A stretch of 64,000 bases of DNA, from IMG/VR virus record IMGVR_UViG_3300033475_000013, positions 1 to 64,000 of that record; one strand, 5' to 3'. Below, piece by piece: positions 4,156 through 20,210 of this stretch. The stretch's first letter is position 1; each line of letters starts with the position of its first letter. A program made the translations under genes and the position numbers. A model generated the notes under the pieces. The model saw nothing but the letters and a program-made list of their open reading frames with translations, searched no databases and was not told the origin of the DNA. This stretch comes from a virus (Duplodnaviria; Caudoviricetes).

Positions 4156-4373
4156 GGTTCAACTGTTTCGATTAGTTCAAGAAATCTTTTACATTCACTG
4201 ATTTGAATATCAATTTTATTCCATTGATCATTGACTAAAGCAATTTGTTCAAGCTCAGATATTCTCTTTTCAATATCTCTTTTAAGGGATGATTTGAAGT
4301 CGTCACGACCTTGTATGTAATCAAGTCCTTTATGGAGATCTATCCAAGCTTGTTTAGCTTTCTCCTTTGTCAT
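4152..4373 (-). CDS. Hypothetical protein
   Basis: ORF with 4-nt overlap to the next gene. Confidence 0.55.
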   Translation of the reverse strand: MTKEKAKQAWIDLHKGLDYIQGRDDFKSSLKRDIEKRISELEQIALVNDQWNKIDIQISECKRFLELIETVEP

Positions 4374-4456
4374 AATAAAAATCGGGTTAACCCCACACCC
4401 GAAGGCCTAAACTGTGCGATACTTCGCTGTACTGGACTCTACGTCACATGACGCTA
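4374..4456 (-). ncRNA. 5-nt-periodic (NGY-NN)9 array A plus 3' hairpin; candidate vrRNA-like guide
   Basis: Minus strand: cGTca tGTga cGTag aGTcc aGTac aGCga aGTat cGCac aGTtt aGGCCT, then hairpin CGGGT-GTGGGGTTA-ACCCG and a T-rich tail. Confidence 0.8.
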
Positions 4457-5026
4457 TTATAATAATTTTATAGTCGTTAACTCAAATCGTCCGAACATAC
4501 CATTATTTGAAGGCCTAAATGAGCCTATCCCAACATATTTACCAGCATACTCAATGATTTGTTCGATAGTCTGAATAGTGATTGAGTCCTCGTCAATTGA
4601 AAGCGTGAATTCAGCGCTCCATTCAGACCATTTTGGACGAACAACGATTACACGAGCCTTTACATTCCTATTGACAGCAGATCGTTTATCGATGCTATCA
4701 AAATCTGGCAATAATATTTGGTCAGGCGAAACCATAAACATAGCTGCCACTATCTGTTTCATGGATTTTGAACGGCCACCAACTTTAGCTTTCACGTAAG
4801 AACCTGCTGCAATTAATGCCCCTCTAATTTGTTCAGATGGTATAAAACATTGTTCATCGGAATTTCGATAGCAATGATATTCCGCACGAACAAGATCCTC
4901 TTTTACTAACTCTGGACGTTCATGAATTGGGCCTCGTTGCTTCTCCCATTGCTCAAGCTTTTGATCATCCATACGGTGTTGCATGTATGGTGTAATTCCT
5001 TTAATTTTTACTTTGTATATTTTCAT
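4457..5026 (-). CDS. Stand-alone RAMP/Cas7-like (RRM-fold) protein, Vipr-like
   Basis: N-terminal strand YKVKIKGITPYMQH; FIPSEQIRGAL (RAMP IPxxxxxGxl motif); RPKWSEWSAEFTL; C-terminal Gly-rich loop GKYVGIGSFRPSNNGMFGRF. No other cas genes nearby. Confidence 0.75.
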   Translation of the reverse strand: MKIYKVKIKGITPYMQHRMDDQKLEQWEKQRGPIHERPELVKEDLVRAEYHCYRNSDEQCFIPSEQIRGALIAAGSYVKAKVGGRSKSMKQIVAAMFMVSPDQILLPDFDSIDKRSAVNRNVKARVIVVRPKWSEWSAEFTLSIDEDSITIQTIEQIIEYAGKYVGIGSFRPSNNGMFGRFELTTIKLL

Positions 5027-5033
5027 AAAATTG

Positions 5034-5115
5034 GATCACTTTACCCCACAATGATCAGAGGCCATTACTTGACTACACTTCGCCCCACATCGCTTGGCTT
5101 TGCAACGCATCAGCA
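5034..5115 (-). ncRNA. 5-nt-periodic (NGY-NN)9 array B plus 3' hairpin; candidate vrRNA-like guide
   Basis: Minus strand: tGCgt tGCaa aGCca aGCga tGTgg gGCga aGTgt aGTca aGTaa tGGCCT, then hairpin GATCAT-TGTGGGGTAAA-GTGATC. Confidence 0.8.
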
Positions 5116-18766: not shown

Positions 18767-18842
18767 CAGGTATTGGGGAAGTCCGGTCGTTCCCGCCACA
18801 CTTGGAATGTGGAGCTCGTTGGTTCAAATCCAGCATGCCTGA
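18767..18842 (+). tRNA. tRNA-Pro(TGG)
   Basis: Acceptor CAGGTAT/ATGCCTG; anticodon arm CCACA-CTTGGAA-TGTGG; T arm GTTGG-TTCAAAT-CCAGC. Confidence 0.9.
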
Positions 18843-18849
18843 CTTTTAT

Positions 18850-18922
18850 TGCCGGATGGTGGAATTGGCAACACATCAGACTTTGATTCTGAAAATTACA
18901 GGTTCGAGACCTGTTCCGGCAA
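18850..18922 (+). tRNA. tRNA-Gln(TTG)
   Basis: Acceptor TGCCGGA/TCCGGCA; TCAGA-CTTTGAT-TCTGA; ACAGG-TTCGAGA-CCTGT. Confidence 0.9.
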
Positions 18923-18924
18923 CT

Positions 18925-18998
18925 GTGATCGTGGGCAAGTGGCTTAAGCCGCGAGATTGTGGTTCTCGTATTCGCCGGTTCGAATCCGGTCGATCACC
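18925..18998 (+). tRNA. tRNA-His(GTG)
   Basis: Acceptor GTGATCG/CGATCAC; CGAGA-TTGTGGT-TCTCG; C73 discriminator. Confidence 0.9.
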
Positions 18999-19008
18999 AA
19001 AAATTAAT

Positions 19009-19088
19009 GCCCCTGTGACATATGCAAACTGGCACAGCTGACGGTTTTAGACACCGTGTTTTTGAGAGTTCGATTCTCTCCAGGGGTA
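19009..19088 (+). tRNA. tRNA-Leu(TAG), atypical (expanded D region, short variable loop)
   Basis: Acceptor GCCCCTG/CAGGGGT; ACGGT-TTTAGAC-ACCGT; GAGAG-TTCGATT-CTCTC. Confidence 0.75.
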
Positions 19089-19092
19089 CAAT

Positions 19093-19166
19093 GGCTGCAT
19101 GGCGAAACTGGCAGACGCGTCAGACTTAAAATCTGAATTTTACGAGTTCGAATCTCGTTGCGGCTA
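19093..19166 (+). tRNA. tRNA-Leu(TAA), short variable loop
   Basis: Acceptor GGCTGCA/TGCGGCT; TCAGA-CTTAAAA-TCTGA; 5-nt variable loop; ACGAG-TTCGAAT-CTCGT. Confidence 0.85.
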
Positions 19167-20210
19167 CAAAAATTTCTCGATCAATGTTCTGAAAGCGAGT
19201 TCGGCTTGCTGTTCAACGACGGCATTTCCTGCCATGCGAAGAAGGTCTTCTCTAAAGTTGTACCCATTAATTGCATAACCCAGGCTGGATTCAAGACGAG
19301 GCTCTTCGAATTCGAATTGATTTGGTCCTTGTCCTGCTGGAAAAAGACTTGTCTGGGCAATTGATCGCACCGATTCCTCCCATCGCTTCTTTGCATTTCC
19401 ATGCCGGCCGTGTCCTTCCAGTCGAGACTGGAAGGAGTTGTCCATTGTCTGACTTGAACTGGTAATGCTGTTCCTCCTTGTTGAAATTTTGTTTTTCTGT
19501 TGGTTGAACTTGATAACGATGTCGTCCACTTTCTCACTGTCTCCGCCAGATATAACGGAACGGTGTTCTGGTTGGCATTTGACTTCCGATAATCCAAGCA
19601 CTTCTGCAAGGTCTCCTCGTCTCTTACTCTGTTCAGAGCAGTAAGTGTCGGCCACGGCAAGGATGAAGAGACGTTTTCTAAGATGTGGCGTGCCCACTTG
19701 CTCCGCAGCGAATATGTCCGCTTCAACTTTGTAACCAAGGCTTGATATTCGTTCTCTGACTTCCTGGTATCCGATATTGAGGTGGTTTGCGACGTTTTCG
19801 AAGAAACAGAGAACAGGTCTAACTGCGTCGATTCCATGTTCAAAGAAGGGGAAGAGATGTCGTGGATCGGCGACTCCGTTCTGTAGCCCGGCTTGTGAAA
19901 ATGGTTGACAAGGATATCCTCCAGTGAGGATGTGTATTTTTCGGTAAAACTGTTCGTACGGGAATGTTTTAAGATCAGTCCAGATAGGCACTGGAGCCAC
20001 CATACCTTGTTCCATTTTCGCTGCCACATTGTAGGCGGCAAAGGATTCGATTTCCACAATAGCGGCATATTGGAGAATTCTAGCTTGATACATTTTTTCT
20101 CCTTGATGTGGGTACCGTAGTGCTGCAATTCCTCGTTCCAGTCCTCGATCAAGTCCACCTTGTCCGTGGCAAAGGCTGAGTGTAGCGAGTGTTTTTTCGG
20201 GATTATCCAC
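19164..20210 (-). CDS. C5 cytosine DNA methyltransferase (alpha polypeptide)
   Basis: Motif I LCHGQGGLD; motif IV GYPCQPFS; motif VI FENV; motif VIII PHLRKRLF; motif X LRMAGNAVV. Confidence 0.92.
   Translation of the reverse strand: MDNPEKTLATLSLCHGQGGLDRGLERGIAALRYPHQGEKMYQARILQYAAIVEIESFAAYNVAAKMEQGMVAPVPIWTDLKTFPYEQFYRKIHILTGGYPCQPFSQAGLQNGVADPRHLFPFFEHGIDAVRPVLCFFENVANHLNIGYQEVRERISSLGYKVEADIFAAEQVGTPHLRKRLFILAVADTYCSEQSKRRGDLAEVLGLSEVKCQPEHRSVISGGDSEKVDDIVIKFNQQKNKISTRRNSITSSSQTMDNSFQSRLEGHGRHGNAKKRWEESVRSIAQTSLFPAGQGPNQFEFEEPRLESSLGYAINGYNFREDLLRMAGNAVVEQQAELAFRTLIEKFL

Follow-up and report, generated by a model that had tools for sequence, protein, structure and literature searches.

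Two short hairpins in a phage genome, each set directly behind a pentameric array and the unit GGCCU next to a gene for a Cas7-like protein, are quite probably the conserved elements at the 3' ends of both vrRNAs in a VIPR system that the phage encodes. They lie in a 64,000-nucleotide stretch of DNA (positions 1 to 64,000 of IMG/VR record IMGVR_UViG_3300033475_000013), all of which was analysed and which we call the window. An earlier note on this stretch had proposed that a functional RNA handle stands 3' of each array, and the homology of the neighbouring protein to Vipr, the vrRNA-like form of the arrays, the tails already published for other systems and the conservation of the hairpin loop all support it. 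Because the protein is a Vipr homologue and the arrays fit vrRNA repeats, we read the locus as a VIPR system and the handle as a vrRNA 3' tail; the locus has a Vipr protein, flanking arrays of nine units each on the gene strand, and a structured tail.

VIPR systems, which are CRISPR-like, were described only in 2026. They comprise a minimal RAMP protein, Vipr, which is mostly phage-encoded, and vrRNAs made of 9-16 pentameric repeats followed by an invariable structured tail; the repeats are canonically YNNGG, with the variants NNNGG, YNNNG and NNNNG, and the published arrays include ribozyme-processed forms (bioRxiv 10.64898/2026.04.26.720920, 10.64898/2026.04.26.720927 and 10.64898/2026.10.15.759431; below, the 2026 VIPR preprints). 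The tail is treated as what makes a vrRNA competent for formation of the Vipr complex (third of these preprints). Other marks of a VIPR system are small vrRNAs that co-purify with Vipr, an accessory gene (vap) conserved beside vipr, and guides that match their DNA targets under a 1-nt-skip rule. [quoted passage not shown]

The 189-aa product of the gene between the two arrays is, by sequence and by predicted fold, a full-length Vipr homologue of the Cas7-type RAMP class. It matches the SUSP1 Vipr of PDB 36pp over residues 1-183 (phmmer E = 2.7e-10) and a profile of 23 homologues (E = 5e-13), and its AF2 model (pLDDT 73.6) resembles chains of Cmr4, Csm3 and type VII Cas7 (Foldseek probability 1.0, E about 1e-6), bearing out the suggestion that a RAMP gene stands beside the arrays. 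The protein is assigned to phrog_4652, a Pfam search with it gave no match, and the Vipr genes of Felixounavirus (Felix O1-like) phages are about 29% identical to it (tblastn). The genes 3' of vipr vary among close relatives (the 73-aa and 142-aa neighbours here match nothing in Pfam or PHROG), and no conserved vap gene is evident beside vipr in the related loci.

The genes around both hairpins are on the minus strand. An intergenic region of 116 nt lies 5' of vipr and another of 83 nt lies 3' of it, and each holds a nine-unit GYNNN array, then GGCCU, then a hairpin, in phase and in the same register in both copies (copy B upstream of vipr, copy A downstream; Table 1). The earlier note had placed both hairpins and both GGCCU units correctly, on the minus strand; the pairs that it had drawn in stems of 5 bp and 6 bp are also correct, but these are only the cores of helices of 6 bp and 7 bp. 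Immediately after the U-rich tract of tail A comes the AUG of the 73-aa ORF (at 4373). The promoter-like site upstream of array A (TTGAGT, 18 nt, TATAAT) agrees with the consensus at 10 of 12 positions, a consensus match only, in a host of uncertain type; its hexamers overlap the last vipr codons and would place the transcription start close to where array A begins, for a vrRNA of ~70 nt.

Table 1. Positions in the window of the vipr gene, the two arrays and the elements that follow them
Feature	Position	Strand	Basis
vipr gene, Cas7-like RAMP (predicted fold), 189 aa	4457..5026	-	phmmer, profile, AF2/Foldseek; phrog_4652
Array B, nine GYNNN units, upstream vrRNA	5064..5108	-	direct reading; in phase to GGCCU
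Last, near-constant unit of array B	5064-5068	-	direct reading
GGCCU junction unit, tail B	5059..5063	-	direct reading; motif count
Tail hairpin B, 7-bp stem including one G-U, 9-nt loop 5041-5049	5034..5056	-	fold, R2, A3
A/U-rich linker of 7 nt, hairpin B to vipr AUG (5026)	5027..5033	-	direct reading
Promoter-like site, 5' of array A, overlapping the end of vipr	4456..4485	-	consensus scan
Array A, nine GYNNN units, downstream vrRNA	4408..4452	-	direct reading
Last, near-constant unit of array A	4408-4412	-	direct reading
GGCCU junction unit, tail A	4403..4407	-	direct reading; motif count
Tail hairpin A, 6-bp stem, 9-nt loop 4388-4396	4382..4402	-	fold, R2, A3
U-rich tract after hairpin A, 7 U in 8 nt	4374..4381	-	direct reading

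As a comparison set we fetched 105 loci that encode relatives of the 189-aa protein (the sampling is therefore protein-based). These hold 215 periodic arrays on the gene strand; on the opposite strand there is one each in a handful of loci. In the 17 arrays used for a consensus, which have 9-17 units each, position 1 of the unit is G in 99% of cases and position 2 is a pyrimidine in 100%, the other three positions being free, and the pentamer before GGCCU is nearly constant (GUAAA in 12 arrays). Judged by their consensus, the GYNNN arrays are the YNNNG variant of the preprints in a shifted frame rather than the canonical GGYNN. Neither a repeat-spacer array nor direct repeats of 25-40 nt are present here. 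Four of the fetched loci have unbroken in-phase GYNNN tracts of 62-92 units beside their vipr homologues (L077:694-1183, L016:2079-2528, L011:1119-1483 and L090:832-1181), far in excess of the 9-16 units published for a vrRNA; each may be one giant guide or a series of guides that abut in phase.

Both hairpins present the 9-nt loop GUGGGGU(U/A)A (the U-A closing pair is counted), with one position differing between the copies. The combination of GGCCU, a gap and the loop 8-mer occurs twice in the 64-kb window, where 0.01 occurrences are expected, and only these two times in the whole genome of 77,943 bases (which has direct terminal repeats). Both hairpins are the minimum free energy and the centroid structures in RNAfold (-9.0 kcal/mol for A, -5.9 kcal/mol for B), with energies no better than those of shuffled sequences (z of -0.5 and +0.25); since their stability is unremarkable by this measure, the case for the hairpins rests on comparison and not on thermodynamics. 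Pairing of the loop with its flanks into a pseudoknot was rejected, there being no complement of the loop in the flanks. The one candidate partner for the G run of the loop is GCCU(U); this pseudoknot would consist mostly of G-U pairs, with a zero-length linker across the 6-bp stem, and is sterically strained and unsupported, its invariant columns giving no covariation. An 8-nt palindrome spans the loop and the 3' arm in the common tail variant and is absent from copy B. Rfam finds only four tRNAs in the window at the gathering threshold and nothing credible between 4300 and 5200 at E up to 1; the phage has four clustered tRNA genes (Pro, Gln, His, Leu) at 18767-19167 on the plus strand.

Counting the window, we have 18 instances of the GGCCU-hairpin tail from 14 loci. 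The proposal had been staked on conservation of the loop in homologues, and eight of its nine positions are indeed invariant or nearly so across these tails, though the Vipr proteins are only 55-80% identical; GGCCU is kept in 17 of the 18 aligned tails. The stems, in contrast, vary in sequence (CGGGU/ACCCG, GAUCAU/GUGAUC, GUGGU/ACCAC, and UGGAGGU/GCCUCCA in stems of 7-8 bp). Loop conservation is partly built into the sample, because the tails were collected by the motif together with upstream periodicity, a bias that the protein-based sampling and the covariance search described below limit and do not remove.

Pairs were counted on the helix-trimmed alignment A3, the MAFFT alignment A1 having misplaced a gap in the long stems. 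In A3, 93.4% of cells are paired, compared with 67.6% in shuffles; six of the eight stem pairs have changed on both sides, and the covariation score was reached by none of 500 shuffles. When the partner was slid by 1-3 columns as a control, pairing fell to 19-54%. Three of the G-U pairs would read A-C on the opposite strand, indicating that the gene strand is the RNA. An operator acting at the level of DNA was rejected, because complementarity is kept rather than the sequence of the arms and because the G-U pairs fit one strand only. On this comparative evidence the stem is under selection for pairing, and the loop and GGCCU are under sequence constraint, so that the reading of a conserved loop on compensatory stems as the mark of a functional RNA element has held up.

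The covariance-model check suggested at the outset also came out in favor of the element. Model R2, which was built from the other loci only with the window sequences left out, gives two significant sites on the two strands of the 64-kb window, and these are exactly hairpin A (33.2 bits, E = 1e-5) and hairpin B (5035-5055; 24.1 bits, E = 0.002), the next site scoring 9.9 bits. Over 298 kb of related loci, R2 gave no significant match beyond the known tails. A previous model, R1, drawn from short-stemmed tails that were almost identical, proved too narrow, with only 7.9 bits for copy B, and R2 was used instead.

Every sampled tail follows an array, and within the loci that carry the hairpin tail every array ends in it (the 'O' call at L211 is a phase artefact). 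Pattern scans of viral and genome contigs, which are no measure of prevalence, returned nearly all chance matches in GC-rich DNA among the matches listed, and among those passing the upstream-periodicity filter only L211 is a true new instance. This locus (L211:108-249, minus strand, IMGVR_UViG_3300006903_000060) has two arrays with the GGCCU-hairpin tail at the end of a viral contig of 8,965 bases in which tblastn finds no vipr; its arrays may be solo vrRNAs, or vipr may lie past the contig end, which is about 100 nt off. A variant tail at L025:177-205 uses the G-rich heptamer, elsewhere in the loop, as the 5' arm of a 7-bp stem closed by a 4-nt loop.

In a quick maximum-likelihood tree built from 83 Vipr sequences, the hairpin tail belongs to a single subclade, in which 12 of 14 rows carry it, together with L086, close by on a long branch; the tail label changes 4 times, compared with 12.3 in shuffles, a clustering that can be plain co-inheritance. 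Two loci inside the subclade are without the hairpin tail, namely L457, whose Vipr is 75% identical to that of the window, and L034: their arrays (at 730-900 and 1486-1570 in L457) end in GUAAAGU and a bare U run and lack both GGCCU and the hairpin. Close Vipr relatives may therefore not strictly need the tail, which tempers any strict claim that it is a loading signal. Across the Vipr family at large, arrays inside a cluster stop at bare U runs, and the outermost one is often closed by a terminator hairpin that is GC-rich and unrelated to this one. Judged from this distribution, the hairpin tail is a solution specific to its subclade. At L014:2083-2969, eight consecutive vrRNA genes share an end module of ~45 nt (a U run and a 10-bp hairpin with G-U pairs), another clade-specific type of tail.

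These endings bring forward the most serious competitor to a Vipr-related tail, namely that the elements are ordinary intrinsic terminators or 3'-protecting stem-loops with no role for Vipr, the likeness of the loops reflecting recent shared ancestry or gene conversion. As in Rho-independent terminators, a stem-loop and a U-rich tract end a short non-coding gene; the nine nucleotides after the stem hold 5-7 U in 16 of 17 tails, and copy A combines 4 G-C pairs in its 6-bp stem with 7 U in the next 8 nt. The U runs and GC-rich terminators of the wider family, and the two subclade members without the element, fit this explanation as well. The loops of terminators, however, are normally free to vary, whereas here eight of nine loop positions and GGCCU have stayed fixed while six of eight stem pairs turned over and Vipr identity fell to 55%. 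The stems are also short, that of copy B being AU-rich, and a terminator scan that admits loops of up to 8 nt calls neither hairpin, because the 9-nt loop is over its limit and copy B offers just 2 G-C pairs and a run of 4 U. Position weighs further against termination as the whole function: unlike terminators, the tail often ends a few nucleotides short of an essential partner gene's start codon (5-14 nt 5' of the vipr AUG in 11 of the 17 tails measured, copy B among them), where efficient termination would shut off vipr. We consider terminators without a Vipr role unlikely.

Another account would make the hairpin a cleavage signal, comparable to the sites of Cas6, at which an RNase of the host or the phage cuts vrRNAs out of an operon transcript, and neither a terminator nor a cap. 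An A/U-rich single-stranded linker beside a stem-loop is a site preferred by host endoribonucleases, and such a linker adjoins the stem-loop here. The distance from tail B to the vipr AUG, like the 5-14 nt in relatives, also leaves no room for a promoter, so that vrRNA and vipr are probably co-transcribed, and ribozyme-processed forms occur among the published VIPR arrays. Against it, no Cas6-like or other nuclease gene is conserved beside vipr, the downstream neighbors differing between relatives, and no ribozyme or other Rfam family matches at the locus. Cleavage would in any case be compatible with, and not opposed to, a capping role; as a replacement for that role we consider it very unlikely.

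The remaining alternative, a translation signal for the gene behind (either a translational operator or a G-rich loop acting like a Shine-Dalgarno [SD] sequence 13-16 nt before the AUG), can draw on the ability of GGGGU to pair with the anti-SD with one wobble (read by hand), on the variant loop GGAGGU of L003 and on the ORFs that begin 5-14 nt beyond the stem in 14 of 17 tails, yet we give it hardly any credence and rejected the SD version, because a strong SD motif at -20 to -4 is missing from all 78 ORFs of the window and because three of the 17 tails have no ORF behind them (L018 at 494 and 1270, L211 at 8814) even though all sampled tails follow arrays. The sequences before the start codons are A-rich, and the absence of strong SD motifs from A/U-rich upstream regions indicates that this phage does not rely on SD pairing. 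SD-poor, A/U-rich upstream regions are typical of Bacteroidota-type hosts. Together with a DUF6549 (Pfam) match in a neighboring gene, a DUF6808 match also in the window and a weak match to a Flavobacterium phage, they point to a host of that type, and this SD-free phage, from soil or rhizosphere metagenomes, probably infects Bacteroidota. Several distant relatives (L063, L065 and L084 among them) have GGAGG before vipr, and the family thus spans hosts with different modes of initiation.

Returning to the vrRNA tail, we propose that each vrRNA is read from the minus strand as nine GYNNN pentamers that would form the guide, ending in the near-constant pentamer, followed by GGCCU, a hairpin (a stem of 4-8 bp of free sequence under a sequence-constrained 9-nt loop) and a U-rich tract. 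The hairpin and U tract would either end the transcript or, after cleavage in the A/U-rich linker, protect its 3' end, and the folded tail may cap the 3' end, marking where the helical Vipr filament begins or stops and fixing the 5-nt register. By parallel with the 3' pseudoknot of the SUSP1 clade, which has this role, the tail most likely terminates or protects the 3' end of the vrRNA and caps or nucleates the Vipr filament.

Copy B may have a further role. With no room for a promoter between tail and start codon, vipr would be translated from read-through or unprocessed transcripts that bear a vrRNA; such transcripts would carry a complete vrRNA as the vipr leader, and loading of Vipr on this leader could damp vipr translation. 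The stem and U tract are weakest in copy B, which fits read-through, and autoregulation of vipr through it, an idea raised in the earlier note, is plausible and consistent with the conserved spacing between tail and AUG. Two GU dinucleotides in the loop stand 5 nt apart, matching the period of the arrays, and we speculate that the loop may be read by terminal Vipr protomers. A bolder version, possible in our view though doubtful, is that the loop, rather than capping passively, presents a repeat-like pair of units on a stem, on which the first Vipr protomers load and set the 3'-to-5' register, with copy B as a feedback switch.

The locus resembles the type II VIPR systems of SUSP1 and Felixounavirus in having a structured module directly after the last pentamer of each guide array, a tail common to all vrRNAs of the locus, a Vipr gene that adjoins on that strand, vrRNAs on either side of vipr, and arrays within 9-17 units. 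It differs in the tail itself, which in the SUSP1 clade is an H-type pseudoknot of about 40 nt (in the Felixounavirus wV8 locus the loop of the tail hairpin pairs with a downstream stretch, the pattern of a true pseudoknot) and here is a single hairpin of about 21 nt that has no complementary partner, stands between GGCCU and a U tract, and shares no sequence similarity with SUSP1-type tails. The repeats are GYNNN and not GGYNN, Vipr has diverged as noted above, there is no evident conserved vap gene, and tail B abuts the vipr start codon (7 nt), compared with about 75 nt in wV8.

The repeat-derived handles of class 1 crRNAs (the 3' hairpin of Cas6 and the Cas5-bound 5' handle) are alike in setting a constant structured end against a variable guide on a Cas7-like backbone, and in a stem kept by covariation. 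Unlike CRISPR, the locus has no repeat-spacer array and no Cas6 or Cas5; its guide is a 5-nt periodic code and not a contiguous spacer, and every guide seems to form a small gene by itself.

Both VIPR and the concept of a vrRNA tail have been published before, and the locus leaves the known picture of VIPR unchanged. What is new is the tail architecture of this subclade: a constant pentamer, GGCCU and a simple hairpin with a constrained 9-nt loop, placed directly before vipr. A distant Vipr clade (about 29% identity, GYNNN repeats) thus uses a much simpler tail than the SUSP1 pseudoknot. Being compact and easy to mutate, the hairpin tail lends itself to asking whether such tails serve termination, 3' protection, filament nucleation or register setting, and its signature of sequence and structure can help to annotate where vrRNAs end in metagenomic phages. 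A feedback circuit is suggested by the conserved position of an entire vrRNA immediately 5' of the vipr start codon, and if the loop does load the first protomers and copy B does act as a switch, this would be a logic of nucleation plus autoregulation undescribed for VIPR or CRISPR, in which Vipr synthesis would be matched to the supply of free guide RNA.
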